A stretch of 64,000 bases of DNA from a virus (Duplodnaviria; Heunggongvirae; Uroviricota; Caudoviricetes): IMG/VR virus record IMGVR_UViG_3300035396_000446, positions 35,006 through 99,005 of that record, one strand, 5' to 3'. Shown piece after piece: positions 2,377 through 63,150 of the stretch. Position numbers and translations under genes: made by a program. Every line of letters starts with the position of its first letter. The first letter of the stretch is position 1. Below the pieces are notes generated by a model that saw only the letters and a program-made list of their open reading frames with translations, did not search any database and had not been told where the DNA came from.

Positions 2377-4248
2377 CTACGTCTTAACGTCTGTCCAATT
2401 CTCGTCATCTTCATCATCATATCTAAGGATAGGGATAAGTGGGGCAAACATTGAATCGGATTCATCTATCGTTAAATTATCTTTAATTTTCTTCTGAGTT
2501 TTTTCACTAAATAAATCATAGTTATCATTATAGAATGATACAATTTCTGATTCCTGGAATAACTTCCATACTTTTTCTTCTACTAATTTTTGATCATCTT
2601 TTAAAGGTCTAACACTGAAAACTGACTGTCCTAAGTCCATTAACACTTCTCTTAAATGACAATAGATGCCCAAAGCTATAACTAAGTCATCATTGGCTCC
2701 TGCCGAAGCCTTCGCCTTCCCAGTTCGATCTTCCCAAATAAAACATAATAACTCATCTATTGTTCTTTTACTATTTATTTTTACTCTATCATTTTGGAAA
2801 CAATCAATTAAATCATTCACAAGAAGAGGTCTTGTTTTAGTGGAGGTTACCCAACCATAATCTCGATATGCTGCTTGCTTTCTCTTTCTTTTATAAATAT
2901 GAGATGTGGGATATTTCAGTGTCTTAAATATATGAGACATCACAGCAAGTCCTGGATTATTTATCTCTATTACTAACGTAGCAAGCCCGTAGTAATACCC
3001 TACTTTTACTAATACAGTCGCATAGTCAGGCGTATCCATTTTCTTTTTATACTCGGCAACTTGTTCGTAAGTTTCTAAATCAAATACATGGAATGAGGAA
3101 TAACTTTTAGAACCCGCCCCACAATCGGCAGTTATGGCGTATCTACCGCCTTCTTTTGGTTGTTTAAATATATGTAAATCATTTAAGACTTCTGTCTTTT
3201 TTGTTTCATAACTCACAATAGAGTGAGAGATAGGGTCTATTACTTTATAATTAAGAAGTTTTTCCTTATCTAAAACCGTGTCGCCTGCCACAAGCCACTT
3301 CTTACACACCTCTTGTAAGAAGATGTCTCTTGCTGTATTTTTAAATGCACCGTCTAGCCAAGCGGGATTCGTGATGTACTCGGGGACTTCCCACCAATCT
3401 ACCCCAATTAAATTAAAATCTGTATTTCCTTCCTCGGTTTGAGTAAGCATATTGTAATACCACTCACCCTTGCCCATATTGCCATTTCTTGTAGATATGA
3501 TAATAACTTTAGATTTGTCTGACTTAGCAATAGCATAGTAGGACCCTGCCCACATTTTCTTCATTCCCTCGATAAATGCAGCTTCATCAAAAACTAAGAT
3601 GGATAGGGACCCCGAACGAGACCCCTCTTCTTTTCGAGGTAATGATTTAACAGAGGAGCCATTTCCTAACGATAATCTATGAGCATTTGTAGGCGGAACA
3701 CTTCCAAAATGAGGGATTCGTCTGAACCACTCAGGTAGATTATCGTAGGTTCCTTTTAATTTCTCTAAAAAGGATTTTGAAACTTCATCATCTGTTGATA
3801 TTATCTCTATAAGTTGATCTTTGAAAAATAGTAGTTTATGCAGTAGTAGAGCTTGGGTTGCTATTGAAAATCCAACCTGCCTACATTTATCAGAAATAAT
3901 ATACTTACTTCTCATAAACTCATAATAATAATTCTGTTGATATAAGTACGGATTGTAATTCAAAAACCCTTCGGTTTGATCTTTTATTTTAAGGTGTCTA
4001 CAGAAATAAAGAATATTTTTCTTACAGAGTCTAATTTCTTCTTTTAGCCAAATCTCTGAACCAACTGGGTGAGGGTTTATAGAGACATCTAAGTCTTCTA
4101 AAGATAAATTTTGATATACTTTTTTTCGAGCTCTTTCTAAACCAAGGAAATATTCATCTTGAACTAACTCATTACAAAATTTGTGTTCTTTAGCTTTTGC
4201 GTAAAGTTTATCATAGTCTAATTGATAATAGTCAAAATAAGATATCAA
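2377..4248 (-). CDS. terL: terminase large subunit (ATPase plus nuclease domains)
   Basis: 623 aa. N-terminal ATPase half has the Walker-B/coupling motif SLSILVFDEAAF. C-terminal half is RNaseH-like with acidic clusters (ITADCGAGS, FHVFDLE). T4 gp17-like architecture. Confidence 0.8.
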   Translation of the reverse strand: MISYFDYYQLDYDKLYAKAKEHKFCNELVQDEYFLGLERARKKVYQNLSLEDLDVSINPHPVGSEIWLKEEIRLCKKNILYFCRHLKIKDQTEGFLNYNPYLYQQNYYYEFMRSKYIISDKCRQVGFSIATQALLLHKLLFFKDQLIEIISTDDEVSKSFLEKLKGTYDNLPEWFRRIPHFGSVPPTNAHRLSLGNGSSVKSLPRKEEGSRSGSLSILVFDEAAFIEGMKKMWAGSYYAIAKSDKSKVIIISTRNGNMGKGEWYYNMLTQTEEGNTDFNLIGVDWWEVPEYITNPAWLDGAFKNTARDIFLQEVCKKWLVAGDTVLDKEKLLNYKVIDPISHSIVSYETKKTEVLNDLHIFKQPKEGGRYAITADCGAGSKSYSSFHVFDLETYEQVAEYKKKMDTPDYATVLVKVGYYYGLATLVIEINNPGLAVMSHIFKTLKYPTSHIYKRKRKQAAYRDYGWVTSTKTRPLLVNDLIDCFQNDRVKINSKRTIDELLCFIWEDRTGKAKASAGANDDLVIALGIYCHLREVLMDLGQSVFSVRPLKDDQKLVEEKVWKLFQESEIVSFYNDNYDLFSEKTQKKIKDNLTIDESDSMFAPLIPILRYDDEDDENWTDVKT

Positions 4249-24537: not shown

Positions 24538-25407
24538 TTAAATATCAAATGTTTGTCCGACTTCTAGAAATCCTCGGAATCCGTCATCTTTTGCTTTTGT
24601 TTTCCAATCGCAAGGTTTCCCAAAGAAATCTTTATCATCAAGAACATAATCTTGATAATGACTTAACCACATTTTATTTTTAATTTCTAAAGGTAGCACC
24701 TCGGCATTTGCTTCTGGATACCCCGCTAATTCTGTGTAATTTGCATGTACCCCTGATTTGAAGGGTAGACACTCACAATCTTGAATAATAATATCAGCCT
24801 TAGAGTAAAACACTCTCACTTGTTTCGGGGAACAATGTTGGGAGTCCGTTGTAAAGTAAATAGATTGATGACCTTGCTTACTCACAATAAGGCCAAATGT
24901 ATCACTAATTTTAGATCCTGTCATTATGTGAACCTGTTGGATAAGTTCAAAGTTCCAACCCTGCCATATAAATGACTTATCTACGGGCTTTGGCTCAAAG
25001 TAAGTTTCAATTGTAGCGTCAAATCCCTCCATGGATTCTAAACCACCCCTTAATGTGTTTTTCCAAAGACTTTTAATTAATTCCTTCTGCGCATATAATT
25101 TAGGAGCATAGGGTTTCATCTTACCAATGTTTTCTAGCTGTGTAAAATCATTCCATCTTACAGGTCTATTCATCCAGTCATACCTATCAAAGGCGAAGTT
25201 CTCTAGAGATCCGCAATGATCGTTATGCTGATGTGAGATATATACACTATCTATATCTTTAAAAGATAACCCAGCATTTGTTAATGCCTCGGGGACTAGC
25301 CTCCCACAATCAATTAGCATTCGTTTGCCGTCCTGCTCTAGCACAAAGCTCTGATTAAAATTTCTTTTTGAGAATGCATTACCACATCCAATTATTGTTA
25401 TACGCAT
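24538..25407 (-). CDS. metallo-beta-lactamase-fold hydrolase (RNase Z/PhnP-like)
   Basis: 289 aa with MRITIIGCGNAF, LIDCG and ISHQHNDHCGSL (the HxHxDH zinc motif). Confidence 0.7.
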   Translation of the reverse strand: MRITIIGCGNAFSKRNFNQSFVLEQDGKRMLIDCGRLVPEALTNAGLSFKDIDSVYISHQHNDHCGSLENFAFDRYDWMNRPVRWNDFTQLENIGKMKPYAPKLYAQKELIKSLWKNTLRGGLESMEGFDATIETYFEPKPVDKSFIWQGWNFELIQQVHIMTGSKISDTFGLIVSKQGHQSIYFTTDSQHCSPKQVRVFYSKADIIIQDCECLPFKSGVHANYTELAGYPEANAEVLPLEIKNKMWLSHYQDYVLDDKDFFGKPCDWKTKAKDDGFRGFLEVGQTFDI

Positions 25408-25420
25408 ATTATTTTTCCTT

Positions 25421-26347
25421 TTATTTGATATAAAACCCGTTAGAATCTAACGTATCTATTTTTTGCTTTTGGGTTACAAAAACATCATAGAACTCATCTA
25501 CAATAAGTCTCATTTCTAAACTAAGCTGATTTAGTATTGGAGACTTGATTGCATTAGGTATTCCATAGAAAGCCTCTGCTATGCCCCCTACGATTGCGCA
25601 TAGAGTATCTGTATCCCCGCCTACCATAACTGCGTTTCGTATAGCATCTTCAAAGCTGGTAGAGTTTACAAAGCAATTAAAAGCTAAAGGCACTGTTCCT
25701 TGGCATGTTACATCGAACTTGTATGTTTTACTTATTACTTCTAAATCATCCCCAAGTAGGCTTCCCCTGTAAGGTGTCTCTACCCCTCGATAATGATCTG
25801 TGTATCCATTGATATAACATAAATCTAAAAACTTACACATGGAAGTATTAAAATCTCCCATCTCCGCTATGCTTGTTTGTAAAGCATTGTAAACCATTCC
25901 TGCTGTAGCTTGAGCCCCATATATGCCCTCTGAGTGATTATGGGTTACAGCCGCAGACTTAGCTGCTTCGATATGAATAGTTTCTATCGGGCAACTCAAA
26001 CTATAAGCGTATGCCACAGGAGCGACACGCATGGCTGACCCGTTACCATAACTATTGTAGGGGTTATTATCTTTATTTAACAGCCAAGCATGAAAACTCT
26101 GACCAAACCCAGATTTATACTTTCGTTGTTTATTAGAAAATGTGCTATTCTTAGAATACTTATTACCCCAATACTTATAGCATACCTCGTATGGCATTTT
26201 GTTTAACAGAGCATCCATAGTTGCTACTGTAAGAATTGTGTCGTCCGTAAAGAAACAAGAGTCATTAAACAAAGGAAAATCCTTGCTTCTATGATTCTCA
26301 AACTCGTATCTTGAACCTATGTAATCACCAATAATTGAACCTAACAT
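25421..26347 (-). CDS. ADP-ribosylglycohydrolase (ARH/DraG family)
   Basis: 308 aa with MLGSIIGDYIGSRYEF, FFTDDTIL, GNGSAMRVAPVAY and MVGGDTDT..AIVGGIAEAFYG, all hallmark ARH motifs. Confidence 0.75.
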   Translation of the reverse strand: MLGSIIGDYIGSRYEFENHRSKDFPLFNDSCFFTDDTILTVATMDALLNKMPYEVCYKYWGNKYSKNSTFSNKQRKYKSGFGQSFHAWLLNKDNNPYNSYGNGSAMRVAPVAYAYSLSCPIETIHIEAAKSAAVTHNHSEGIYGAQATAGMVYNALQTSIAEMGDFNTSMCKFLDLCYINGYTDHYRGVETPYRGSLLGDDLEVISKTYKFDVTCQGTVPLAFNCFVNSTSFEDAIRNAVMVGGDTDTLCAIVGGIAEAFYGIPNAIKSPILNQLSLEMRLIVDEFYDVFVTQKQKIDTLDSNGFYIK

Positions 26348-28792: not shown

Positions 28793-30013
28793 TTATAGAA
28801 ACCTACCCATAAACTGATTTTTCGCTTCATCCAAGTTGCTTACTGATGTCAATAGATTGACATCAACAGAGGCACTCTTGTCCACGAACGTAGATCCTTT
28901 CGGGTCGGTTTTGGCCAACTCGGCCATACCTTGGTTTAGAATATTAATAGAGGCGTTATAGTCTCTATCTATTTCTAAACCACATTTTTCACATTTAAAA
29001 GTCCTATCTTTCAAAGTTAGATCAACTTTTTTCCAACCACAACTAGAGCATGTCTTACTGGAAGGGAAGAACCTATCTACTTGATGAATAGTTCTACCAT
29101 ACCAACCTGACTTATATTTTAATTTTGTAACAAAAGAAGACCAAGACACATCATGGATTGCTTTGGCTAGTTTGTGATTTCTCACTATTCCTTTTATATG
29201 TAAATCCTCCAAACAGATAACTTGGCTCTCGTTAGCTATTTTAGAAGATAATTCATTTAAAAAATGGTTTCTCTGATTTGATACATGAAGATGGACTTTT
29301 GCTAACTTTACTCTTTGTTTTTCATAACGATTACTTCCTTTTACTTTTCTACTTAGCCTTCTTTGTAGAGTCTTTGTTTTATTTTCTGAATTTCTTCCAA
29401 AATGGGGATTCTCTATAATAGTTTTATCAGACATTACAGCAAACTCTTTTAGGCCTAGATCTATCCCAATGGATTTTGACTGGACCGGTAAGGTAGGAAT
29501 TTCTACATCACATAAGATTGATGCGAAATAATGACCTACCTTATTTTTGGATATAGTCACGTTACATATTTTTATAGTTTGTAGTATATCAAGGTATGAC
29601 CCCGATGCCTTAAATGAAACAAACCCAAGTTTTAATAATTTTATCTTAGTCTCAAGTACTTTACAGAAAGTTTCTGTCTGTGGTTCTCTATATGAATCTT
29701 TCATCCCCTTCTTCTTAAACTTAGGGAACCCTGATCCCATCTTTTTCATATTTTTGAAAGCTTCTGTTAAATCATTTTGAGCTTGTTGTAGTCCCCTAGA
29801 AGACCCTAAGGCCAACCATTCCAACTCTTTCTTAAAATCTTTTGGATTTAATTGTTTAAAGCCCTCATAACTACCATGCTCTTTTTTCCAAGAAATAACA
29901 TGTTCAAGACATTTATTATACCAAAAACGACAGTTTCCTATTGTCTGATTAATTTGTTGTTCCTGTTTTTTGTTAGGATACAATCTGACTTTAAATGCCT
30001 TCTTTCGTATCAT
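28793..30013 (-). CDS. tnpB: TnpB (OrfB) RuvC-like RNA-guided nuclease, IS200/IS605 family
   Basis: 406 aa. N-terminal KVRLYPNKKQ...CRFWYNKCLE; RuvC-I IGIDLGLKEFAV; RuvC-II VICLEDLHIKG; zinc finger CSSCGW...CEKCG; RuvC-III DRDYNASINI. All catalytic residues present. Confidence 0.8.
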   Translation of the reverse strand: MIRKKAFKVRLYPNKKQEQQINQTIGNCRFWYNKCLEHVISWKKEHGSYEGFKQLNPKDFKKELEWLALGSSRGLQQAQNDLTEAFKNMKKMGSGFPKFKKKGMKDSYREPQTETFCKVLETKIKLLKLGFVSFKASGSYLDILQTIKICNVTISKNKVGHYFASILCDVEIPTLPVQSKSIGIDLGLKEFAVMSDKTIIENPHFGRNSENKTKTLQRRLSRKVKGSNRYEKQRVKLAKVHLHVSNQRNHFLNELSSKIANESQVICLEDLHIKGIVRNHKLAKAIHDVSWSSFVTKLKYKSGWYGRTIHQVDRFFPSSKTCSSCGWKKVDLTLKDRTFKCEKCGLEIDRDYNASINILNQGMAELAKTDPKGSTFVDKSASVDVNLLTSVSNLDEAKNQFMGRFL

Positions 30014-30438: not shown

Positions 30439-32049
30439 TTAATACTCTATATCATCAAAAAGTAATGGGATACTTTCTTGAAACTCTTTTAGTAAAGGTC
30501 TCATTAACTCATGCATAATTGGATGTGCTACATCAGCAGTTCGTAAATCCATAATGTGTCGCCACTCTCTAATATTTGTGGTAACAACGATATCTGCTTT
30601 AATTCCAATAGGAAGTACATCCCTTGCAACTTGTGCTTTTACACCCATTCCAATAAGTTTCATGTAATTATTTTGAGAAGATTCCCAAGAGGATAAGAAT
30701 ATATCCTTGGCTTCTTGTCCAAGATTTTCAATATAGTCTGGAATGATTACTGAAATTTCGTTTCCGAACTTTTCTTTTGAATAATTCACGTATCTTGTAC
30801 TGTTATGGGTGATAAATCCTTCAGCAACATAATTGTTTAAAGGAGAGTTCATCTCCAAATCATAAAAAAACTCTTCTACTCCAATCTTTTCTATACTCGT
30901 TATTCTAGATAGTTTGGTATAAGAACATTTTTTCATCTCTTTATGGATCAACTTATGGCATTTGACACATAAAGGTAAAAGATTATACTCCTCATTATTT
31001 TTGGTATCTTTATCCGAGTGATGTCTCTCCTTTGCAGTGGACCCACAATTTAAGCATACAACCTCCTTTAATGAGAAGTTTCTATTAGCTCTACTATACC
31101 CATTCTTTACAGAGTTGCCTAGCCACGCACTATTTTCTTCACCTTTCCCGTTGTTGTGATGGTGGTTTCTTAATGTCTCGGCCTGTTTAGCTACAGATTT
31201 ATTTTCTGACTCTTTTACCCCACGATTCCATACTACCCTCCCATTCTTATATTGATTGTCTATTGTTTCTTTCATTTTTTTATAAGAATCTTCAGTATGA
31301 TTTATGTTGTATTTTCCTGGGTTTTTATCATTTTTCCTAGGAGTAAAAACATTTAATTTTTTAAGGATACGTATAATGCTTCTATATGGAATTTTATGCT
31401 TTTCACTTATTTCCAGAGGGCTCAAGTCTTTGTACTCTTCCACTAGTGAATCCTCGTCTATATTTAAGAGAGATGGTCTTCCGTTGACATTAATATACTC
31501 GCCAACTTTAAGATTTTTTACTGAATCATACTCGTTACTGTTCCTTAATAATTTGTGCTCGCAAGAACAGTCTAAGGAGTACCCTTCTTCCGTGTTAGCC
31601 CTGTATACATCTCCACCTTTCTTTTTGAATACGTGCATAATCTTATTGGCGACTATTAACTGATCATTTGTTACACTTTTTGCTAAGGGAAGGCTTTCCC
31701 CCTTTTCTTGCAGCTCATGTAGTTCTTCAATTGTTATCTTTGTCCCATCTGACATACTTATTTTTGTATTACCTGTGACACATTCCTGGGCAAAAGAAGC
31801 TAAACGCATTCTAACAATTTCATGGCTGAATCCCCGGTTTCCGTGGAATAGAACAGATATTACAGGAGCATGTTCAATCATCGCTTCATGTTTATTTTTA
31901 AGTAAAGTAGCAATCATTTTAAGATCGCTACCCTCTTGAATCAGATCTTCTGATTTATAACAAACCCTAGCAATTCTCTCAATCTGTTTTGTGAACTCTG
32001 TATTCCTGATGTCAGTTAAAATTTCATATGTTGGTTTTATTAATCTCAT
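30439..32049 (-). CDS. thyX: flavin-dependent thymidylate synthase ThyX interrupted by an intein
   Basis: N-extein (aa 1-89) has ARVCYKS and HxxIxxxRxRLASFAQE. The sequence is then broken by C (CVTGNTKI) and resumes after ...ITHN with STRYVNY, restoring the ThyX R(H/M)RxxSxxxxSxRY motif. Exteins total about 209 aa. Confidence 0.8.
   Translation of the reverse strand: MRLIKPTYEILTDIRNTEFTKQIERIARVCYKSEDLIQEGSDLKMIATLLKNKHEAMIEHAPVISVLFHGNRGFSHEIVRMRLASFAQECVTGNTKISMSDGTKITIEELHELQEKGESLPLAKSVTNDQLIVANKIMHVFKKKGGDVYRANTEEGYSLDCSCEHKLLRNSNEYDSVKNLKVGEYINVNGRPSLLNIDEDSLVEEYKDLSPLEISEKHKIPYRSIIRILKKLNVFTPRKNDKNPGKYNINHTEDSYKKMKETIDNQYKNGRVVWNRGVKESENKSVAKQAETLRNHHHNNGKGEENSAWLGNSVKNGYSRANRNFSLKEVVCLNCGSTAKERHHSDKDTKNNEEYNLLPLCVKCHKLIHKEMKKCSYTKLSRITSIEKIGVEEFFYDLEMNSPLNNYVAEGFITHNSTRYVNYSKEKFGNEISVIIPDYIENLGQEAKDIFLSSWESSQNNYMKLIGMGVKAQVARDVLPIGIKADIVVTTNIREWRHIMDLRTADVAHPIMHELMRPLLKEFQESIPLLFDDIEY
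30802..31782 (-). other. intein (327 aa) with embedded HNH homing-endonuclease domain, inserted in the ThyX RHR/SxRY active-site motif
   Basis: Cys+1 at 31782-31780; terminal His-Asn (30807-30802) followed by Ser+1 (30801-30799, checked against the nucleotides). HNH module: CLNCGSTAKERHHSDKDTKNNEEYNLLPLCVKCHKLIH. Confidence 0.75.
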
Positions 32050-42830: not shown

Positions 42831-43667
42831 TTATTTCGCTAGATTAACAAAAGGGAGAGATCCACCAGGAATCATTGTTCCAGGTAAAGCACCATTCCAT
42901 TTATCAATCGCTTTTTCTTCGAGTTCGATTCTTCGCCATTCAATAAGAGAATTATTAATAGAACTTGACAAAACCTGATTAGCTTTTGCTTCGGCAGAGG
43001 CTTTTACGACAGTTTTCTCTGCTTCCCATTTAGTTTTCTCCAATTCATTCTTTGCTTTATCAGCGTCTTGAATTGCTTGAACCTTATTATTAAGAGCAGT
43101 TACCACGTTTTCAGGAAGTCTAATGGAACCAATATAGTATAGATTATCAACAATAATCCCTTGCGAAGAAAATCTAGTTTGGATTTGTTTTAAAACTTCT
43201 TTAAGTAGGTCAGTTTTACCTTCTCCATATACATATTCTACAGGGTATCTACTTGCTGTATTATTGAAAGCATCTCTTACTGCATTCCTAAGAACAATAT
43301 CCGTCAACTCTTCTACGCCTTTTCTATATTTAGAAAATATAGCTGTAACGTTAGTTGGGTTAATATGGTATTCAATTCCAAGGTCTGTATTAACTGACAT
43401 TCCTTCACTTGTTTGAAAAGTAAAAGATTCGTCGTTAGAAGATCCTTCGTCTTTTCCGGCAGTCCAGACATAGTTTTGTTGATAAGTTGGGAAAATATAG
43501 AGTTCTTCGTTCATACCAATGTAGTAACGTCCTACTCCAAGCTCTATAGAATCAATACCTTTTTGTTGTCCTAGTAGAAATACTTTGATTCCCACGTGTC
43601 CAACAGGTACCCGCTGACATGATAAAATTGTCGCTATAAATAGCACACCTAGTAATATTTTTTTCAT
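42831..43667 (-). CDS. SPFH/band-7 (prohibitin/HflK-like) lipoprotein
   Basis: 278 aa. Signal peptide with lipobox ILSC. SPFH-type start VPVGHVGIKV; coiled-coil ENVVTALNNKVQAIQDADKAKNELEKTKWEAEK. Confidence 0.6.
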   Translation of the reverse strand: MKKILLGVLFIATILSCQRVPVGHVGIKVFLLGQQKGIDSIELGVGRYYIGMNEELYIFPTYQQNYVWTAGKDEGSSNDESFTFQTSEGMSVNTDLGIEYHINPTNVTAIFSKYRKGVEELTDIVLRNAVRDAFNNTASRYPVEYVYGEGKTDLLKEVLKQIQTRFSSQGIIVDNLYYIGSIRLPENVVTALNNKVQAIQDADKAKNELEKTKWEAEKTVVKASAEAKANQVLSSSINNSLIEWRRIELEEKAIDKWNGALPGTMIPGGSLPFVNLAK

Positions 43668-45403: not shown

Positions 45404-46069
45404 TTAAACCTCTATTATTGTCACAGGATTTACTATGTCATAGTCATTGTTCATTAATGATACATTATAAAAGGTATCTTTTATAATTCTCTTGAACTTA
45501 GCATCAGACTCTTCTCTATGGATATGTCCGAATATGTTTATAATACCTGGTTTGTTTTCTTTATATCTTTTTTGAAACCACTCTGCAAGAGCTTCTGACC
45601 CGCAGTTTCTTCTTTCTTGTTTCTTGTATCTATCTCTAACATCATCTAAAATACCCCGTGGGGGACCGTGGGTAATAAGTACATCAGTATCTTTGTGAAT
45701 CTTTGCATATCTTTTCTCTAATTGTTCCTCAGATTCCATAAACGCCCAATTCATAAATGTTGGGGTATAAGGAGTCCCATAAAAGGTTACTCCATCTATT
45801 TTTACTTTCGAATCAATTAAATAATGAATATTGTACTTTTTCTCACTTAATTCTTTGGAGTTTTTATCTTGGAAATACCAATCATGGTTTCCAGGTACTA
45901 TTAATTTATATTTAACTTGGTCTAAACTATGTAACCACATAGAAAATTGAAGATAGTAAATACTATCCTTAATTTCAAAATCACCCGCCATAATTAAAAC
46001 ATCGCATTCCGGTATTTTAATACTATATGCAGAGGGTTGATGTAAGTCAGATATTGCTGCTATTTTCAT
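45404..46069 (-). CDS. calcineurin-like metallophosphoesterase
   Basis: 221 aa with ISDLHQ (DxH), LIMAGDF (GD), VPGNHDW (GNHD/E), ITHGPP and IFGHIH motifs. Confidence 0.65.
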   Translation of the reverse strand: MKIAAISDLHQPSAYSIKIPECDVLIMAGDFEIKDSIYYLQFSMWLHSLDQVKYKLIVPGNHDWYFQDKNSKELSEKKYNIHYLIDSKVKIDGVTFYGTPYTPTFMNWAFMESEEQLEKRYAKIHKDTDVLITHGPPRGILDDVRDRYKKQERRNCGSEALAEWFQKRYKENKPGIINIFGHIHREESDAKFKRIIKDTFYNVSLMNNDYDIVNPVTIIEV

Positions 46070-49900: not shown

Positions 49901-50098
49901 TTATTTTTCCTCTATTTCTTCTTCGACGCTATAGTCTACGTCTACTCTCTTATCTGCGCCAGAGTACATATGTGTACCATCTATTAATTTCTGAAATATA
50001 TCTCGCATTTCAATTAGCGCCTCTTTACTCCAATTTCTATAGTTCCAACCACAAGTACATGGGTCATCCCAACACTGTATGCAACTTCTTAATGACAT
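49901..50098 (-). CDS. hypothetical small protein
   Basis: 65 aa with a CIQCWDDPCTCGW Cys cluster. Confidence 0.3.
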   Translation of the reverse strand: MSLRSCIQCWDDPCTCGWNYRNWSKEALIEMRDIFQKLIDGTHMYSGADKRVDVDYSVEEEIEEK

Positions 50099-50646
50099 TT
50101 TTGTCTCCTTATTTCTCTTATCTTATCACGAACCTGCTGAAAAGTCAAGGGTCTTAGTCCATGAAGTTCGCAGTTGACATTGAAGTATCTTTCACCCAAT
50201 TGTTGTATTTTAGTTTGGTCATTTCCAGGATGGAGGTGACCATGTAAATTTATTGCGTCTTTCCATCTCCCCTCTAATTGCATCGGATGAATAGGTACAT
50301 GTGTTAAAACAAACTCGGAGTTCTCTTCATAGCCGCCCCTAACAAAAATAGAGACAACTTTATCGAAATATTGGAATAGCTTTTTATTCATATCATGGTT
50401 CCCCATTATAAGAACTTTCTTTCCATTAAGTCTTGGAAGTATTCTATCTATGGATGTTTCAGGTTTGAAACATACGTCCCCAAAGTGATAAACAGTATCG
50501 TCCCAGGAGACATCTTCATTCCAATTCTTGATAAGGGTCTCATCATGTTCTTCTATTGAACTAAACCCTCTTGCTTCGTAAATGAATTTTTTGTTATGAC
50601 AAAAATGCGTATCAGATATAGCAAATGATTTTTGATTCTTTCCCAT
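50089..50646 (-). CDS. calcineurin-like metallophosphoesterase (second copy; Ser/Thr or polynucleotide phosphatase-like)
   Basis: 185 aa with ISDTHF (DxH), HFGDV (GD), IMGNHD (GNHD), VLTHVP and LHGHLH motifs. Confidence 0.65.
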   Translation of the reverse strand: MGKNQKSFAISDTHFCHNKKFIYEARGFSSIEEHDETLIKNWNEDVSWDDTVYHFGDVCFKPETSIDRILPRLNGKKVLIMGNHDMNKKLFQYFDKVVSIFVRGGYEENSEFVLTHVPIHPMQLEGRWKDAINLHGHLHPGNDQTKIQQLGERYFNVNCELHGLRPLTFQQVRDKIREIRRQKCH

Positions 50647-53900: not shown

Positions 53901-54160
53901 TTTATTTTTCCTCTTTTTTTAGGTTCAACATGTTCTCTGGTGTCTAGAATATTTTTTATAGCTTGGTATTTAGACTTATATCGTTCATTCCAATCTTTTT
54001 TGCGTTTACAATCCTCGCATTCACAATCCCACACATAATCCTCCAACCCAGTTAAAAAAGGAGTTCGGAAGTACTTTTTCTTATAAGTTAAAAGCCTTTT
54101 AGTTGATAAAGCTTTTAAAGCTTTAATAGAGAGTTCAATATCAGGAAAGCTCAATCTCAT
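53897..54160 (-). CDS. hypothetical protein
   Basis: 87 aa with CECEDCKRKKDW. Confidence 0.35.
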   Translation of the reverse strand: MRLSFPDIELSIKALKALSTKRLLTYKKKYFRTPFLTGLEDYVWDCECEDCKRKKDWNERYKSKYQAIKNILDTREHVEPKKRGKIK

Positions 54161-54573
54161 TTTAAAATTTCTCCTTCAATATCTTCAAATCTTGCTTTCA
54201 TTTTCTCGATAGATTCTGCTGGCACATCATGAATAGAACCATAATCACTTGTCATTCTAAAAATTGTTACTTGATAACCTAACTTTTCAGCAAGTTCTAG
54301 ATAAGACTCCATTTCCCATTTCTGGGTAAAAGTATTAGACACTATAACACCTTTACTTTGTTTCATCATTTCCATTGCAGTCTTTTTGCACCACTCATGG
54401 GCATTTTTAATCCTAGAGCCATCAAAGTCATAATGTCCATCTACATCTTCAAAGTACATATCAGCTTCTAGATGGACATAACCCTCCATTTCCAATTGGT
54501 ACGTCAAATTTGCTTTAACAAACGTGGATTTTCCAGAGCCAGGCGTTCCGCGCACGAGAATGAGATGTTTCAT
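54157..54573 (-). CDS. P-loop kinase, T4 polynucleotide-kinase (Pnk) kinase-domain-like
   Basis: 138 aa. ILVRGTPGSGKSTFVKANL matches T4 Pnk ILTIGCPGSGKSTWAREFI. KGVIVSNTF...LAEKLGYQVTIF...VPAESIEKMKARF tracks Pnk GVIISDTN...AKEYGWKVEHKVF...VPIDVLRSMYKSM. Confidence 0.5.
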   Translation of the reverse strand: MKHLILVRGTPGSGKSTFVKANLTYQLEMEGYVHLEADMYFEDVDGHYDFDGSRIKNAHEWCKKTAMEMMKQSKGVIVSNTFTQKWEMESYLELAEKLGYQVTIFRMTSDYGSIHDVPAESIEKMKARFEDIEGEILK

Positions 54574-56065: not shown

Positions 56066-56094
56066 ATTTTACCATGATATATGATTTTTGTCAA
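56066..56094 (-). promoter_or_regulatory. sigma70-type promoter TTGACA-N17-TAAAAT (TGg extended -10)
   Basis: Minus strand: TTGACA (plus 56089-56094), 17-nt spacer ending CATGG, TAAAAT (plus 56066-56071). Overlaps the 3' end of the nucleotidyltransferase gene and marks the end of the five-gene operon. Confidence 0.5.
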
Positions 56095-57026
56095 CCTTCT
56101 TTTATGTATTTTTCAGTTAAATCTATAAGATATTTATTTATTTTATCAAAATCAGATCTTTCTGGAAGCGTAGAGTTTTGCTCAACTTCTTGGAATTTCT
56201 TAAATAAGACATCGCAGATTTCCATTACTTCTTCAAAAGTATATATCCCTGTTTTAGTATTAAGAATAACTTTTCTATGTTCTTCAATCATAGGCAATTG
56301 AATAGTTTTCGTTTCTGCTAGTTCTAGTCCCTGATACAGTAGGCGAAGTAGATGCCCGGCGAACTTGCACTCAAATCCATACTTCCGAATATTATCTGCC
56401 CTAGATCCATAAGCATCTATTTCTTTTTTAAGATGGTCTCTTACTTGCTGCATTGGTTGTTTCACCATATAGGCTCTATTCTCACCTACTTTATTTTTAA
56501 ATGCGCCGTAGTGTAAGCCAGATAAAACTTGAACATCATATTCAGTCAAAGTATCATTTGAAATAGATGTGACATAATCATAGGAATTCTTTAAAGCATT
56601 AAATCTTTCTGTTTTTGTTTTAAGTAACTTTCTTTGCTCATTGCTATAACCAAAGTATGATTTAAACAAATTCTTAGTTATAAACATATCCTTCATACTT
56701 TGAATTTCAAAGTATAGGTCGGAGGTAAACAGCCTTTTCGACTCAGGAACAAAGAATAGTTCAAGAATATTTGGATTTGCTTTCATCGCTAATTCAAAAA
56801 ATCTATGGATAGAATACATAGTTGAGTCAATATCCTCTTTGCTATTTGCTGAGTAATTATCCCCTGTAGATGCTTGATATTCATCTCCCCTTGTAAGACC
56901 AAATAGCTCATTTTTAGATTTCATGAATAAACCGCAGTAATCCGTATCGGACGAAGGGGTATCGGTCCCATAGAGTTTAGAGCCTGAGTAACATATCATT
57001 ATTTTATTTGGTATGTTTTCAAACAT
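56091..57026 (-). CDS. polymerase-beta-superfamily nucleotidyltransferase with cGAS/OAS/CD-NTase (SMODS)-like active-site signature
   Basis: 311 aa. N-terminal ICYSGSKLYGTDTPSSDTDYCGLFM matches GS-x3-GT-x4-SDxD-hydrophobic, as in OAS1 [22 protein letters not shown] and cGAS-like enzymes. A further acidic EDID lies about 40 aa downstream. Helical C-terminal domain. Confidence 0.55.
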   Translation of the reverse strand: MFENIPNKIMICYSGSKLYGTDTPSSDTDYCGLFMKSKNELFGLTRGDEYQASTGDNYSANSKEDIDSTMYSIHRFFELAMKANPNILELFFVPESKRLFTSDLYFEIQSMKDMFITKNLFKSYFGYSNEQRKLLKTKTERFNALKNSYDYVTSISNDTLTEYDVQVLSGLHYGAFKNKVGENRAYMVKQPMQQVRDHLKKEIDAYGSRADNIRKYGFECKFAGHLLRLLYQGLELAETKTIQLPMIEEHRKVILNTKTGIYTFEEVMEICDVLFKKFQEVEQNSTLPERSDFDKINKYLIDLTEKYIKEG

Positions 57027-57036
57027 TATTATATCC

Positions 57037-58668
57037 TTAGCTGCTAATTTTGTATATAGTTTTATCTTTTATTCCCAATACCTGGTCTTCCCTATTGACT
57101 AACTTATATTCAGATAAGCCAGAATTAGGTATAACTTTTACATCATTTTGAGACACTGACTGAGCAAAAATTTCTGCGGAGTCATCCCCATTGACTTTAA
57201 ATACCACGCCCTTTGGTAAGCAAACAAAGTTTATACCACTATAGGATATATCCTTATTTATTCTAACAATTGGGTCTGTATATTCTTTTGAGAACTTAAA
57301 GATATATTCGTCGTACTTGCCTTGATAACTACTAATTATCACAAGTACAGTTTTATCGAACTTAGCATCTACTATTTGACCTTTAATATCTTTTAAAGGT
57401 AACTGCATATGCGTTTTCTTATTAGGAAAAAAAGATAATACAGGAGTTCCTAGTAGATTTTGAATAGCACATCCTGTATAAAATGTGGTTGCATTAGGTA
57501 GTACAGATGCTACAGGGTATAAAACAGGATAGGTTGCTGTTAGGTCAGTAATTTCTACTATTTGCTCCCCTATAAGTACATATACTCTTCCCTCGTAATT
57601 CAGGATGTTCTTTACTGCGCCACTATAAGTCCCTTTGATAGTTTTTAATTTATTGATATAATGTAGCTCTCTATTTTTTAATTCAACATAGAAAAACTCT
57701 TTGCCATTATCTAATATTGAAACTATCCCCTCTAAATCTATAGAATCTACATAGGTTTTAGAGGAAGTATAGACAATCTCCACTGCTCCAATTTTCTTGT
57801 AATTAACAATATCCGAGTCTTTACTAATATATTGATCAATCTTAAAAACACAAACGGTATCAATATGTTTTTGAATAACCACTACCGATCCCACTTGGTC
57901 TATCATGTTTGGGTCTAATCTCTTACCTTGCTCGAAGATAGCATGGAACCAACCTTTATAGTTCTGAGGAATCATATTGAGATCCGCCACAGGGGGCACT
58001 GAAACTTCTGCATTTAATACCGACAAGTTTTTTAGCATCCTGTCATTGATATCTTTTACTGTTGGGTGCTTCCCCTTATAAGGATGTATGCCAGTTAACA
58101 TCTGAAATGCTAATACAGCATAGGAAAACCAATCTGTTTCTTTTGAAAACTGTTTGGCATGTCTATCTCTAATACTATCCATAATAGCCGTAGCAGGGTA
58201 CGTCTTGGTTTGATAAGAATCTACATCAATTGCATATAATTTCTTAAAAGACGAATCTAATAGAAAATTGAGTTCATTCATGTCTACTATAAGGATGTTA
58301 TTAGAGTGACAATTATTCATTATAACCTGTAACTGCTTCATAAGATTTACAATAGTGTCTGCTTTTATTTGATTTCTCACTTTAAAAGCTTTTGTAAATA
58401 TTTGACACAAAGCAGTAGTATCTGTCACATAATTCATAGTATACCCAACTGCTTTCGTACCCTCATAAATGATGTCTTCTGGTTTAATAATACTTGGCTC
58501 TTTTAATACCGCCAACTCTTTAATCTTATCGGTAGGAATCATTTTATTGGGGTCTATATATAGTTTATAGGCTACCCCATCTTTTGCATAGATATGACCT
58601 TCCCCGCCGGAAGCGACAAAGTTATTTTTTGTTAAATCAATGTGTCTGTTTTTAACTGTTACTTGCAT
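57037..58668 (-). CDS. eukaryotic-like Ser/Thr protein kinase with about 290-aa C-terminal extension
   Basis: 543 aa. Gly-loop ASGGEGHIY; VAYKLY (beta3 Lys); catalytic loop HSNNILIVDMNELNFLL (like HRDLKPENILL); AIDVDS in the DFG position; FSYAVLAFQMLTGIHPY in the APE/alpha-F region. Confidence 0.7.
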   Translation of the reverse strand: MQVTVKNRHIDLTKNNFVASGGEGHIYAKDGVAYKLYIDPNKMIPTDKIKELAVLKEPSIIKPEDIIYEGTKAVGYTMNYVTDTTALCQIFTKAFKVRNQIKADTIVNLMKQLQVIMNNCHSNNILIVDMNELNFLLDSSFKKLYAIDVDSYQTKTYPATAIMDSIRDRHAKQFSKETDWFSYAVLAFQMLTGIHPYKGKHPTVKDINDRMLKNLSVLNAEVSVPPVADLNMIPQNYKGWFHAIFEQGKRLDPNMIDQVGSVVVIQKHIDTVCVFKIDQYISKDSDIVNYKKIGAVEIVYTSSKTYVDSIDLEGIVSILDNGKEFFYVELKNRELHYINKLKTIKGTYSGAVKNILNYEGRVYVLIGEQIVEITDLTATYPVLYPVASVLPNATTFYTGCAIQNLLGTPVLSFFPNKKTHMQLPLKDIKGQIVDAKFDKTVLVIISSYQGKYDEYIFKFSKEYTDPIVRINKDISYSGINFVCLPKGVVFKVNGDDSAEIFAQSVSQNDVKVIPNSGLSEYKLVNREDQVLGIKDKTIYKISS

Positions 58669-59512
58669 TTGTTATTTCCTTTGGAAATATGATAGAGGAT
58701 ATTGATATATCATCGTAATGTGTAATGTTATTTTTCTTACATTCTTTCAAGAACTTATTCATCGTTCTCTGAGTAACCCCAGATGTGAGTAGTTTAAAAT
58801 CATTCATCTTTTTCACAATAGTAATTGGGTCGATAGGATTATTCTCTGCATCTAAGAAAGAAAAAACTCCGTCAGACATTACAGATACATATTCTACAGA
58901 CCCCTTGGTAACATTATGACTGAAATGACACTCTAGAACGTCACGCTTGATATTTGAAATTTCAAGCCCACCAGCTTGCGTTAATATACTATGTAAAGTG
59001 TAGGAACTCTTATTTAAAATATCTACCTTTGCTTTACGGTTTAAATCATATGAGTATATTGGATAATACGGGTACCCCGATTCATAAGAGAGCAAAAATA
59101 GTTGGGAGTCTCCGTCAATGTATTTTATATAAACGGCACCATCTCCTATAGCTTTAATACATATTTCTCTACCTAGCTCCAAAGCATACAAAAGAGTAGC
59201 ATCTATAGGAGTTGTTCCATCTGTATTTTTAATCCCGAAATCTCGTTCTACTATATCTAATGCAGTTTTTACAGTTTGGACAATACTTAGGTCGCCTCGG
59301 TCAATCGTAAGATTATTTTTTAAAACATTTGCCAACACCATGGAACCTATATGGGTGTTCCCTGACCCCGAGCATCCGTCTGATATAATCGCTATACCAT
59401 TTCCTGACGTAGCATGGTCTTCACAAAAGACGTGGGTATTTCCTTTGGCAAAATAAAAATCTGTAAACATGGTGAACCACCTATTGAATTTTTTTGTAGC
59501 TAAGGTACACAC
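58652..59512 (-). CDS. PP2C-family (PPM) Ser/Thr phosphatase
   Basis: 286 aa with FCEDHATSGNGIAIISDGCSGSG (ED...DG.G motifs I/II), VMSDGVF and C-terminal YDDISISSIIF (DDIT motif). Confidence 0.65.
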   Translation of the reverse strand: MCTLATKKFNRWFTMFTDFYFAKGNTHVFCEDHATSGNGIAIISDGCSGSGNTHIGSMVLANVLKNNLTIDRGDLSIVQTVKTALDIVERDFGIKNTDGTTPIDATLLYALELGREICIKAIGDGAVYIKYIDGDSQLFLLSYESGYPYYPIYSYDLNRKAKVDILNKSSYTLHSILTQAGGLEISNIKRDVLECHFSHNVTKGSVEYVSVMSDGVFSFLDAENNPIDPITIVKKMNDFKLLTSGVTQRTMNKFLKECKKNNITHYDDISISSIIFPKEITNASNS

Positions 59513-59536
59513 CTGGATAGGTGCATACCTTAATTG

Positions 59537-60289
59537 TTAAATGCTTAGACTAATTGGCTTTGAAGCTCCGCCTGATCCAAGCGATTGGCTTTGAGCACTG
59601 ATTGACTTACTAACAAACTGAGCGAGTTTTGCAAGTGTATTCGCATTTGCATTATCGATCTTTTCGTATTGAGAAAACTCTGCTTCTGTTTTGAAGTCAG
59701 TAAGAAACTTATCAACATCTACGTCAGAGGTATTCACCCCGATTAGAATTGTTAGAATAGATTCCAAACTGGTCTCTTCTTTTTGAACTTGTTTAATGAG
59801 TTTTGCAACTTCTTTAGATGTATTTGTTGATTGATTATCATCACCATCTGTGATAACAAATACAATACCATTTACATCGAAATCTTGTGCTGTAAGCTCT
59901 GCGCCATATTGTCTTGTTGCCTCGATACCATTGATTGTTGCATCAAACAACGCAGTCATACCGTAAGGTTTAACAGCATCTTGGTAATCTGACAAATTAC
60001 ACTCGGAGAGCAGTTTGAACCCGTGCTGTTCTGTAACATCTGCATTGAATGAAACGAGTCGGATCATAAGATTATCGGCTCTTGGGGATTTTTGACAAGA
60101 TTTAACAACTTCTTGAATCGCTTTTACAAGGTCATCTCGGAATGAACTTACGGAACCAGATACGTCTACTACTAGAGTAACTAAAGTGTATTCCGAACTA
60201 CCAAGATTTACTAATTTTGTTTTACTGAATTGAAAGCCCCCTGTTTTAACTGCGGGGGTAACTTCCATTGTGTCTGTATTGAATCTCAT
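59537..60289 (-). CDS. von Willebrand factor A (vWA) domain protein, TerY-like
   Basis: 250 aa with MIDAS LVVDVSGSVSS, a downstream T (GMTALFDA) and VFVITDGDDN. Confidence 0.65.
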   Translation of the reverse strand: MRFNTDTMEVTPAVKTGGFQFSKTKLVNLGSSEYTLVTLVVDVSGSVSSFRDDLVKAIQEVVKSCQKSPRADNLMIRLVSFNADVTEQHGFKLLSECNLSDYQDAVKPYGMTALFDATINGIEATRQYGAELTAQDFDVNGIVFVITDGDDNQSTNTSKEVAKLIKQVQKEETSLESILTILIGVNTSDVDVDKFLTDFKTEAEFSQYEKIDNANANTLAKLAQFVSKSISAQSQSLGSGGASKPISLSI

Positions 60290-60304: not shown

Positions 60305-61105
60305 TTATTTAAGGAATTCGTTTGTTGTGGATAACTTCATACCGCGAGCAACCATGCTGTTGATGAAGTCATCTTGGTCTTTCTCGAAACCTGTTACAGG
60401 GCTAGTTGCGTCAGTAAGAAGGGTTACTTTACTTACATATTTGTCTCCGCCTAGAGCATCAACAATATCAATAAGAGTAAACTTCAAACAATGACTTCCT
60501 GCTTCCCCTGCGATAACAAGGTTGTCCACAGCCTCTAAACTTTCAGTAAGGGTAGTATTAAGCTGTGTGCTTAGGTCCGCTGGATCGGGAACTTCTGCTT
60601 TAACTGCTGAATAATGTTCTGTAAGGAAATTGCTCCCTTTTGTAACATAGTCAACATTTGCCACATATTTATCGCCCCAGGTAAGAAGAGATGTATATAG
60701 GTCTGATACAATTTGTGTTCCCCAACTTCCAATAAGGCAATGAGCTGGCCATACACATAATAGATAACGTCCGTTATCTTTAAGAGCCTTAGTGTAAGAT
60801 AGCGCATATTTAGAGAAAGAAGGTATCGTTGGCATCCATGTCCCATTTGCAACATCATCATAAGAGATGATTGTAAACGGATTCGGTTTTTGTCCAGAGG
60901 AATTTTTCCAAAACCCTGGGTGGGCGATGTCAAGTAAGTGATGGCTGTCTAAAGTAACGTGAATGTCCGTTAGTTTAGCACCAACTCGGTCAATCATTTT
61001 TGCAAGTCGAGACATATCTTTGTCTGCACCTGCAACAAAAAGCGCACCTTTAGAGTCACAGAAGTCATTCTGTGGGTCGATGATAAGTAATTGTGTGTTT
61101 TGCAT
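60305..61105 (-). CDS. pncA: nicotinamidase (PncA-like, isochorismatase superfamily)
   Basis: 266 aa. LLIIDPQNDFCDSKGALFVAGAD matches M. tuberculosis PncA IIVDVQNDFCEGGSLAVTGGA. TLDSHHLLDIAH is the D/H metal site. WPAHCLIGSWGTQI matches WPPHCVSGTPGADF. LVIAGEAGSHCL is the catalytic Cys region. Confidence 0.7.
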   Translation of the reverse strand: MQNTQLLIIDPQNDFCDSKGALFVAGADKDMSRLAKMIDRVGAKLTDIHVTLDSHHLLDIAHPGFWKNSSGQKPNPFTIISYDDVANGTWMPTIPSFSKYALSYTKALKDNGRYLLCVWPAHCLIGSWGTQIVSDLYTSLLTWGDKYVANVDYVTKGSNFLTEHYSAVKAEVPDPADLSTQLNTTLTESLEAVDNLVIAGEAGSHCLKFTLIDIVDALGGDKYVSKVTLLTDATSPVTGFEKDQDDFINSMVARGMKLSTTNEFLK

Positions 61106-61698: not shown

Positions 61699-62098
61699 CT
61701 AAATCTCCTGATTTTAATGCGGAAACTTCAGTGCAAGACATACAGTTACCGTCTTTGTCTTTTCTTAGTGGTTGCTCACACTTTGAACACTCTTGGTATG
61801 GGATAACCTCCTTAAAATAAAGGTTATCTTCCCATTCCCCGAAATAATCTTGAGTGTGGTCATACCTTACCTCAACCAAATAGACACCGACAGCTAATTT
61901 GTAATAAAAACCCATCCCATCCATATCCTCTTGTAGCTCATCAAACACATAATCATTATGACATTTATCTATATTGAGTATCTGAAGTAAATGAGCTTCT
62001 AGATTACAGTCTATAGCAATAAGACAAAATGGGTGCTCGGTCCCAGGAATATAATCCTCTTCTTGTTCCCTTACTTCCATTTGCATTAGCTTTAGCAT
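61688..62098 (-). CDS. hypothetical protein, C-terminal Cys cluster
   Basis: 136 aa ending CSKCEQPL...CMSC. Confidence 0.4.
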   Translation of the reverse strand: MLKLMQMEVREQEEDYIPGTEHPFCLIAIDCNLEAHLLQILNIDKCHNDYVFDELQEDMDGMGFYYKLAVGVYLVEVRYDHTQDYFGEWEDNLYFKEVIPYQECSKCEQPLRKDKDGNCMSCTEVSALKSGDLDGN

Positions 62099-63150
62099 TC
62101 TTCTTGTCCATTATCTGTATCAACTACACCTGCTTCCTTATCAAGATATTCATGAAACCATCTTCTAGCTTCTTTAGAGATATGCCCGTTGACGCTTTTA
62201 GGCTCAAGATTATTCTTAATAAGCGTATCCATTTCTTCTTTCATAACATCATTTACAACCCATCTCAAGAAGTCGCCTGTTTTCTCCACTACAGGAGGTT
62301 CATTTGCAAATACAATAGAAATACCCTGCATAAGTCTATTCTCTGTTACAGCATATTCAACAAACTCTTTTATACCTTCCATTTTCTCTACATCAACAGC
62401 GGATAAAGTCGTAACACGGGAACTACTATGCTTCTCTCCCTTCGTTTTGAAAATTATACGGTTATCACCTAAATATGTCTCCCATACAATTCCTTCTCCA
62501 ACACCCTCTACCCCAAAAGCTTTTCCAACGGGGCATTGAGTTTCTACTTCTTCTACATACTCAATCATTTTCTTTTGAGCAATATGTGGGTTCTCAAAGT
62601 CGATGTCTATTTCATATGTTTTAAAAGAAAGAATATTGTAGATGTTATGCTCTTTAAGGTCATTAAAATAAGACGCATCAAACTCTTTAAGCCACTTCCC
62701 TTCCGTCTCGTTCTCTACAACATTTGATAATTTTACACCAAATACTACAAACATCTTATTAGGAAGTTGGGAAAGGGCTACTCCTTTTTGAATGCTTTGA
62801 CCACACCATTCACCATAGATAGAGATAATATCTGCGTCTGTTTTTATAGTAGAAAACATATGTTTAAATACTTCTTTCTTGCTCTCTACAAAGAAAGCAA
62901 AACCGGCGTTATCTTTTTCAATAGTAATAATATTTTCTCTTGACTGCGCCCACATGTCGCCTGTTTTTGTATTAAAACACACCCCTGAATTCGTACCATG
63001 GAGTTTGACTGTTCCTCTAAACTTAATAATAGGCAACTTTATAGTTCTATCATACCCTTTCTCTTTATCTACGAATTGAACCCTATCAGATACGGCTCGA
63101 ATTGTTTGTCTAAATTGTTGTGTCTCTGGGTAACTAATTAATTTTTTCAT
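62092..63150 (-). CDS. RNA ligase, Rnl2 family (T4 gp24.1-like)
   Basis: 352 aa. Motif I TVKLHGTNSGVCF matches T4 Rnl2 REKIHGTNFSLI. IYGEWCGQSIQKGV matches FGEFAGPGIQKNV. EGIVWETY is motif IV-like. IIFKTKGEKH is motif V (K-x-K). Confidence 0.7.
   Translation of the reverse strand: MKKLISYPETQQFRQTIRAVSDRVQFVDKEKGYDRTIKLPIIKFRGTVKLHGTNSGVCFNTKTGDMWAQSRENIITIEKDNAGFAFFVESKKEVFKHMFSTIKTDADIISIYGEWCGQSIQKGVALSQLPNKMFVVFGVKLSNVVENETEGKWLKEFDASYFNDLKEHNIYNILSFKTYEIDIDFENPHIAQKKMIEYVEEVETQCPVGKAFGVEGVGEGIVWETYLGDNRIIFKTKGEKHSSSRVTTLSAVDVEKMEGIKEFVEYAVTENRLMQGISIVFANEPPVVEKTGDFLRWVVNDVMKEEMDTLIKNNLEPKSVNGHISKEARRWFHEYLDKEAGVVDTDNGQEEC

Follow-up and report, generated by a model that had tools for sequence, protein, structure and literature searches.

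What does the nucleotidyltransferase encoded near one end of a 64,000-nucleotide stretch of tailed-phage DNA do: does it make a signalling nucleotide, or does it act on another substrate? The stretch (IMG/VR record IMGVR_UViG_3300035396_000446, positions 35,006 to 99,005; referred to as the window and numbered from its first letter) is of phage origin and carries genes for a portal protein (362-2338) and a large terminase (2377-4248). In a preliminary description of the DNA, an N-terminal motif of the nucleotidyltransferase was taken as the mark of the second-messenger oligonucleotide synthases OAS1, cGAS and the CD-NTases, and the neighbouring kinase and phosphatase genes as a sign of regulated activity. 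Our analysis assigns the protein to a different family, RlaP, and points to a probable role in the repair of broken RNA.

The gene encodes a divergent phage RlaP protein

The gene (56091..57026) is a minus-strand open reading frame that runs from an ATG to a stop codon and encodes 311 amino acids. It is certainly a genuine gene rather than a frame open by chance, because its product has a full-length Pfam hit, 84 database hits including an identical sequence, and matches in 2099 phage records. Residues 11-34 read ICYSGSKLYGTDTPSSDTDYCGLF and contain G15-S16, G20-T21 and S26-D27-T28-D29; both the reading frame and the GS-x3-GT-x4-SDxD motif are therefore present as first quoted.

The sole Pfam family matched at E ≤ 0.01 was PF10127 ('RlaP, RNA repair pathway DNA polymerase beta family'), which scored 81.2 bits where the gathering score is 23 (E = 1.3e-22) over residues 11-302 and model positions 23-249 of 249. 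SMODS, Mab-21 and OAS1_C gave no Pfam match at this threshold, no NCBIfam model matched the 311-residue protein at E ≤ 0.01, and no PADLOC defence model did so at E ≤ 0.1. A search of PHROGs matched phrog_388, 'nucleotidyltransferase', at 1.2e-67. By tblastn, relatives were found in the 2099 phage records, all at less than 60% identity, and these included T4-like 'NrdC.11' genes and gp3 of cluster-C-type mycobacteriophages. T4 NrdC.11 could be aligned along 308 residues, 27% of them identical (E = 2e-21); the T4 motif, GSHLYGTSTPESDVD, has the identical GS-x3-GT-x4-SDxD pattern.

A homologue search of 5.8 billion proteins (E ≤ 1e-5) returned the 84 hits, with the query's own sequence at the top, and all but one carried PF10127. 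Of the 84, 56 (a count that includes the query itself) had the strict pattern GS.{3}GT.{4}SD.D, and 82 had the relaxed form GS-x3-G-x5-SDxD. Because these RlaP hits and T4 NrdC.11 share the pattern, the signature is the consensus of the RlaP family and is not specific to cGAS or OAS; the claim that it singles out OAS1, cGAS and CD-NTases does not hold. By its sequence, the gene product is a divergent phage member of RlaP (PF10127) and a homologue of T4 NrdC.11. Thus, the original identification as a nucleotidyltransferase stands, but the placement in the cGAS/OAS/CD-NTase subfamily gives way to RlaP, as indicated by Pfam, PHROG 388 and T4 NrdC.11.

Catalytic residues and predicted structure

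In an alignment of 55 homologues, G15, S16, G20, S26, D27, D29, K221 and R228 were invariant and H225 was kept in 54. The search for a third catalytic acidic residue, proposed in the preliminary description, yielded D67, which is D in 49 and E in 4 homologues (D/E in 53/55) and lies on strand 66-72. T4 NrdC.11 keeps a D at the D67 equivalent and has N at the equivalent of D65. By the general mechanism of Pol-beta nucleotidyltransferases, D67 is probably the third catalytic carboxylate. On the C-terminal side, K221, H225 and R228 are probable ligands of the nucleoside triphosphate (NTP) or of the RNA end. The crystal structure of the Pseudomonas fluorescens enzyme, PfRlaP, has conserved positively charged residues in the cleft between its domains (PMC12776372).

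A confident AlphaFold model built from the 55-sequence alignment (predicted local distance difference test score, pLDDT, 92.7; predicted template-modelling score, pTM, 0.89) consists of a beta/alpha nucleotidyltransferase core (residues 8-101), a set of helices (103-283) and a long terminal helix (293-310). Compared by the order of secondary-structure elements and not by superposition, the model agrees with PfRlaP as described, in which an N-terminal nucleotidyltransferase core is followed by an all-helical C-terminal domain; in the PfRlaP crystal structure, the last helix packs back onto the nucleotidyltransferase domain. Foldseek against the PDB placed ANT(4′)/kanamycin nucleotidyltransferase first (E = 3e-4, template-modelling (TM) score about 0.3), followed by the nucleotidyltransferase-like protein 3c18, HalB of Hailong, Tam41, AAD(9) and LinB, and all of these fold matches are weak. 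A fold search of BFVD gave full-length matches to phage 'nucleotidyltransferases' with E values down to 8e-18 and TM scores of 0.6-0.72, and these proteins are the fold's real relatives. Sequence and family-profile searches of PDB chains gave chance hits only, and no RlaP structure was present in the PDB copies searched.

A hallmark of cGAS, OAS and the CD-NTases is a long N-terminal spine helix that precedes the GS-bearing strand and bridges the two lobes. The AlphaFold model has no such helix: its first element is strand 8-14, which leads straight into G15-S16 and helix 16-19. In addition, cGAS, OAS, DncV and the Cdn enzymes were absent from both lists of closest PDB folds. In place of the cGAS-like match first envisaged, the predicted structure is nearer to the antibiotic nucleotidyltransferases ANT(4′), LinB and AAD(9) and is without the spine, a result that the preliminary description had itself named as refuting its reading.

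The gene lies in an RNA-repair island

When 24 kb of the window were compared with 50,697 phage records by megablast, no match was obtained; the phage is not close to any deposited genome. An identical protein is encoded on a 190,870-bp metagenome contig in ENA (L001), which was examined with 10-kb flanks. On the minus strand, the gene order begins with Thg1 (beyond the window), two small genes, an Rnl1-type ligase, a 243-amino-acid gene, an Rnl2-type ligase and two small genes. It continues with isochorismatase, vWA, PP2C and Ser/Thr kinase genes, RlaP, five small genes, a polynucleotide kinase (PNK)-like kinase and, later, a metallophosphoesterase (Table 1). The Rnl2-type ligase gene is 5 kb and the Rnl1-type gene about 7 kb upstream of RlaP, on the same strand. 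Since Thg1 and the Rnl1-type gene extend beyond position 64000, the island runs past the end of the window.

The P-loop kinase is a candidate healer of 5′-OH ends, a role in RNA-end processing suggested by its resemblance to PNK, and the metallophosphoesterase is, by analogy, a candidate healer of 3′-phosphate or 2′,3′-cyclic-phosphate ends. Bacterial Pnkp contains a metallophosphoesterase module, which is the basis of this analogy. Judged by the gene block of Thg1, Rnl1, Rnl2, RlaP, PNK-like kinase and phosphoesterase, an unusually complete RNA-repair island for a phage, this virus would encode enzymes for each step of a pathway that heals, fills and seals broken RNA.

Between the RNA ligase gene and the vWA-PP2C-kinase genes is an isochorismatase-fold protein (60305-61105, minus strand) that is nearest to the nicotinamidase/pyrazinamidase PncA (NF008623, 3e-15, below the cut-off) and may have a role in NAD+ salvage. 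In a related contig (L003), NAMPT and a PRPP-synthetase-like gene are found beside RNA-repair genes.

A proposed role in tRNA repair

The name RlaP denotes an 'RNA ligase-associating Pol-beta' nucleotidyltransferase; as summarised in PMC12776372 and PMC7824862, the family was named by Burroughs and Aravind for its linkage to RNA ligases. Iyer et al. 2021 reported that RlaP is the most prevalent end-restoring nucleotidyltransferase in jumbo phages and that its distribution there mirrors that of RNA ligases, and predicted that it restores nucleotides lost to RloC-type nucleases prior to ligation (PMC7824862). Carruthers, Fatma and Huang (bioRxiv, December 2025; PMC12776372) showed that the RlaPs of P. 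fluorescens and P. aeruginosa (PfRlaP and PaRlaP) label RNA, not DNA or protein, and add one or two nucleoside monophosphates (NMPs) to an RNA 3′-OH with a preference for Mn2+. In that work, PfRlaP, given a cleaved-tRNA mimic, acted preferentially on its anticodon-break 3′ end over the acceptor end, the Pseudomonas enzymes partly rescued aminoacylation of a tRNA with one nucleotide missing, and their product suits 5′-phosphate RNA ligases (PMC12776372). T4 NrdC.11 is placed in the RlaP family there as an uncharacterised member (PMC12776372).

With the family membership, catalytic residues, fold class and neighbourhood established here, we infer by analogy that the phage RlaP adds one or two NMPs to the 3′-OH of broken RNA, in the repair of tRNA before ligation during infection, and put the probability of this at roughly 0.7. 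In the proposed sequence of events, a host anticodon nuclease would cut the anticodon loop of a tRNA, an RloC-type enzyme also excising a nucleotide, and the phosphoesterase and P-loop kinase would turn the ends into 3′-OH and 5′-phosphate. RlaP would then transfer one or two NMPs from NTPs to the 3′-OH, most likely that of the 5′ half of the tRNA, with D27, D29 and D67 holding two divalent metals (probably Mn2+) and K221, H225 and R228 sitting in the inter-domain cleft during NMP addition. Thg1 may refill the 5′ side, and the Rnl1- or Rnl2-type ligase would seal the break. A place for RlaP before sealing would fit, because ATP-dependent 5′-phosphate ligases need a 3′-OH end such as RlaP produces.

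Several observations weigh against this proposal. RNA 3′-end activity is known from the two Pseudomonas enzymes only, in a preprint, and not from any phage-clade RlaP, T4 NrdC.11 included; the best non-self relative of the 311-residue protein is only 32% identical. The solved folds closest to the model belong to small-molecule and protein nucleotidyltransferases. Within the locus itself, five genes separate RlaP from the nearest ligase, an unrelated-looking signalling triad among them, and no tRNA genes were found in the window. Elsewhere, an RNA ligase was detectable within 10 kb of RlaP in only 3 of 80 viral RlaP loci from IMG/VR (64 non-redundant at 80% identity; local iterative hidden Markov model (HMM) search within 10 kb), and around T4 nrdC.11 no RNA-repair gene (ligase or PNK) lies in the 11 kb to one side or the 3.5 kb to the other.

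To what extent the linkage to ligases is general depends on the sample. In the five longest contigs with the nearest homologues (L002-L006), an RNA ligase gene was no more than two genes from RlaP in four, two of which also had a PNK or HD-kinase. The ligase is two genes downstream of RlaP in L002, and in L005 an Rnl2 gene overlaps the start of RlaP. The order is HD-kinase, one other gene, Rnl2, RlaP, one other gene and Rnl1 in L003, and Rnl1, RlaP and PNKP in L004; in L006, a CCA-adding enzyme is two genes from RlaP. Among the 80 IMG/VR loci, a PNK-like kinase was found within 10 kb in 10 and a homologous phosphoesterase in 8 (E ≤ 1e-4). A Pfam scan of the 118 immediate same-strand neighbours of RlaP in the 64 non-redundant loci identified HD phosphohydrolases as the commonest (11), together with CCA-adding enzymes (4) and RNA ligases (3), and the remainder were mostly replication genes. 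We therefore rejected the idea that phage RlaP always adjoins a ligase, as the 3/80 loci by HMM agree with the Pfam neighbour scan (RNA_ligase 3). Across these samples and T4, the RNA-end-processing theme therefore recurs near RlaP but is not obligatory, and the window is among the more complete examples.

The enzyme might also extend RNA 3′ ends with another target, such as the acceptor (CCA) ends of tRNAs or other RNAs, in place of anticodon-loop breaks. In 4 of the 64 non-redundant loci, a CCA-adding enzyme gene directly adjoins RlaP, and one is nearby in L006; full-length tRNA and rRNA-sized species were among the RNAs that the Pseudomonas enzymes labelled (PMC12776372). We consider such a target unlikely, since the genes of the island include two ligases, Thg1 and a PNK-like kinase but not a CCA-adding enzyme, ligases serve internal breaks and are not needed for 3′-terminal repair, and PfRlaP favoured the anticodon break over the acceptor end.

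Alternative substrates

A transferase like ANT, LinB or MNT would nucleotidylate (AMPylate) a host protein or small molecule and not RNA. The nearest solved folds (ANT(4′)/kanamycin nucleotidyltransferase, LinB, AAD(9), ANT(3″)(9), DrrA and GlnE) are of this type, and the helical domain at the C terminus resembles HEPN and nucleotidyltransferase substrate-binding domains. Identity as an antibiotic nucleotidyltransferase (ANT, LinB) was rejected, as the fold match is weak and there is neither family-level sequence similarity nor strong structural similarity. An MNT antitoxin was likewise rejected: these are nucleotidyltransferases of ~100-150 amino acids with a separate HEPN toxin that carries Rx4-6H, and the phage protein has 311 amino acids and a fused helical domain. 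There is no R-x(4-6)-H in the 311-residue sequence and no HEPN gene adjoining the RlaP gene, and the Foldseek match to MNT (7ae9_G) had an E value of only 0.14. Overall, modification of a protein or small molecule by this enzyme appears quite improbable.

The upstream triad is probably a separate module

The preliminary description correctly placed the gene directly after a kinase gene. The RlaP start codon is 10 nt past the stop codon of the 543-amino-acid protein kinase gene (57037..58668), and its ribosome-binding site overlaps that stop codon (minus strand, TAAGGATATAATAATG). Upstream of the kinase are PP2C and vWA genes. The TerY-P triad consists of a vWA (TerY-like) protein, a PP2C phosphatase and a Ser/Thr kinase with a C-terminal extension; it is self-contained and mobile and is predicted to be a metal-sensing phosphorylation switch, and TerY-P-like modules are stand-alone antiphage systems (PMC11090510). 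The genes here follow the same order (vWA, PP2C, kinase with a C-terminal extension). In PADLOC, no model matched the vWA or PP2C protein, there was no TerY-P match, and the kinase matched only the PD-T4-6 and mad6 models, weakly; scanning IMG/VR by pattern brought up no relatives of the kinase. From gene order and domain content, the triad (57037..60289) is probably a divergent TerY-P-like system and a module separate from RlaP. Its presence within a phage RNA-repair island is an odd placement.

The adjacency had suggested that RlaP activity is regulated, for example that the triad switches it on and off in phosphorylation-gated RNA repair. In line with this, the two genes are closely spaced with the overlapping ribosome-binding site, no minus-strand terminator-like site lies between the genes, and the strongest promoter-like match on the strand (56094..56066) is just past RlaP, compatible with RlaP as the last gene of a unit. 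The idea found no backing in other genomes. In the 80 viral RlaP loci, no homologues of the kinase, PP2C or vWA proteins were found, with the cut-off relaxed to E ≤ 10 for the kinase and PP2C, and none were found in the five homologue contigs; neither the kinase nor the PP2C family was among the 25 commonest RlaP-neighbour families. Moreover, the triad has the order of a self-contained mobile module, phage genes are packed tightly whatever their function, and the promoter scan was at chance overall (69 found vs 67 expected). Kinase control of RlaP is thus quite unlikely; if true, it would make this the first viral RNA-repair module under phosphorylation control. The simplest reading is that RlaP and the triad are two adjoining modules in a phage genome that is densely packed; their co-transcription is plausible, and a functional coupling is unsupported.

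Operons were not defined from the promoter and terminator scan, which did not exceed chance. Its best sigma-70-like match in the 15-kb region (56066-56094, minus strand) has the form TTGACA-17-TAAAAT and an extended-10 TG. Lying across the stop codon of RlaP and directed towards the next gene (56048), it may mark the start of a new transcription unit, with the scan as a whole at chance level.

Two further departures from RNA repair by a simple gap-filler can be taken together: within the phage clade of RlaPs, this enzyme might make short primer-independent oligo(deoxy)nucleotides, like its top structural neighbour HalB, as a counter-defence decoy, or might carry out RNA repair gated by a co-transcribed TerY-P-like switch. 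As a joint alternative, we regard this as very unlikely. Synthesis of a cyclic or linear oligonucleotide messenger by a cGAS/OAS/CD-NTase-like enzyme, for example as a decoy or competitor of host CBASS-type signalling, is extremely improbable, and CD-NTase identity was rejected because neither sequence profiles nor folds support it.

Table 1. Features of the RlaP locus and its surroundings (window coordinates unless a contig is named).
Feature	Position	Strand	Evidence
RlaP-family (PF10127) nucleotidyltransferase gene	56091..57026	-	Pfam, PHROG, T4 NrdC.11 homology, AlphaFold model
Catalytic Pol-beta motif G15-S16 ... D27-x-D29 (GS-x3-GT-x4-SDxD)	56940..56984	-	Homologue alignment and pattern counts
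D67, probable third catalytic carboxylate	56826..56828	-	Conservation; start of strand 66-72 in model
K221-x3-H225-x2-R228 on helix 220-239, C-terminal helical domain	56343..56366	-	Conservation in 55 homologues
AAGGA ribosome-binding site	57034..57038	-	7 nt upstream of RlaP ATG; overlaps kinase stop codon; read from sequence
Ser/Thr kinase gene, 543 amino acids	57037-58668	-	Pkinase 1.3e-09; C-terminal ~300 amino acids uncharacterised
PP2C gene	58652-59512	-	PP2C_2 3.7e-06
vWA gene	59537-60289	-	VWA_2 weak, 0.0089, 17 bits vs threshold 27; DVSGS MIDAS motif present
Rnl2-type ATP-dependent RNA ligase	62092..63150	-	Pfam RNA_ligase PF09414 1.1e-10, 42 bits vs cut-off 27; PHROG 548 'RNA ligase' 2.3e-56
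Rnl1-type RNA ligase, last 37 codons	63890..64000	-	Full gene L001 2055-3137; Pfam RNA_lig_T4_1 8.9e-20
Thg1 (3′-5′ tRNA nucleotidyltransferase)	L001 491-1252, just past window position 64000	same strand as RlaP	Pfam Thg1 6.3e-26, 91 bits
P-loop kinase, polynucleotide-kinase-like	54157..54573	-	Pfam AAA_33 2.1e-16, Zeta_toxin 3.4e-08; PHROG 2071 3.7e-37, PHROG 505 'polynucleotide kinase' 1.7e-12
Calcineurin-type metallophosphoesterase	50089..50646	-	PHROG 547 'phosphoesterase' 6.1e-47; Pfam Metallophos weak, 20.2 bits vs cut-off 21.5

Other genes in the window

Elsewhere on the minus strand, a metallo-beta-lactamase-fold protein (24538-25407) matches the Pfam family Anti-Pycsar Apyc1 (PF23023; 81 bits vs a cut-off of 50). 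It is likely to be a cyclic-nucleotide-degrading counter-defence enzyme and is a better candidate than the nucleotidyltransferase for interfering with nucleotide signalling. Adjoining it is an ADP-ribosylglycohydrolase gene (25421-26347; PF03747, 2.4e-37), whose product may reverse host defence based on ADP-ribosylation. The same strand carries a ThyX (Thy1) thymidylate synthase gene split by an intein (30439-32049; PF02511 1e-31, Intein_splicing 6.9e-16) and a gene for a 406-amino-acid transposase, possibly IS200/IS605 TnpB-like (28793-30013; PHROG 506, 1.3e-121). Downstream of RlaP and on its strand are genes for an SPFH/Band-7 protein (42831-43667; 1.8e-22) and a second calcineurin-type metallophosphoesterase (45404-46069; 1.5e-10).

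Implications

For annotation, the appropriate label is RlaP-family RNA-repair nucleotidyltransferase, in place of cGAS-like enzyme. The protein adds a divergent member to a family that is known and was recently characterised; its RNA-repair context is of a type known in phages, and it does not overturn current understanding. What novelty remains lies in how RlaPs of the phage clade work biochemically and in the unusual TerY-P-like triad that interrupts the island. The island would offer a convenient system for the unproven idea that phage RlaPs, T4 NrdC.11 included, counter nucleotide-excising anticodon nucleases such as RloC.

Comparison with known systems

With cGAS, OAS1 and the CD-NTases, the phage protein shares the catalytic GS...[DE]x[DE] motif of the Pol-beta superfamily. 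It differs from them in having no HMM match to these families, no spine helix, no C-terminal domain of the Mab-21 or OAS1_C type and no signalling or effector neighbour, and they are not among its closest folds. HalB of the Hailong system aligns over 126 residues at 13% identity with no sequence-profile match, and its genomic partner is the HalA channel. The closest solved folds, ANT(4′) kanamycin nucleotidyltransferase, LinB and AAD(9), share the arrangement of a nucleotidyltransferase core followed by a helical, HEPN-like substrate-binding domain.

In presumed function, CCA-adding enzymes and Thg1 are comparable, since they add a few nucleotides to damaged tRNA ends independently of a template and co-occur with RNA ligases in large phages (Iyer et al. 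2021, PMC7824862). In contrast, CCA-adding enzymes form a separate Pol-beta family (PF01743) and Thg1 has another fold and polarity (3′-5′), and neither matches the query sequence.

The RlaPs of P. fluorescens and P. aeruginosa share with the phage protein the Pfam family, the GS turn and three acidic residues, the order of a nucleotidyltransferase domain and a C-terminal helical domain (predicted for the phage protein) and the association with RNA ligases. The partners differ: the Pseudomonas genes are in RtcB/RtcA operons with a 3′-phosphate ligase, whereas the phage gene is found with ATP-dependent Rnl1- and Rnl2-type 5′-phosphate ligases, Thg1 and a PNK-like kinase. The assayed enzymes belong to cluster 1a and the T4 homologue to cluster 5 (PMC12776372), and the likeness drawn here between the phage and Pseudomonas proteins is one of shared features. 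T4 NrdC.11 is a full-length phage homologue with the same motif pattern and with equivalents of D67, K221, H225 and R228. It differs in its surroundings: the T4 gene stands apart from repair genes over the distances given above, whereas the window gene lies inside a repair island.

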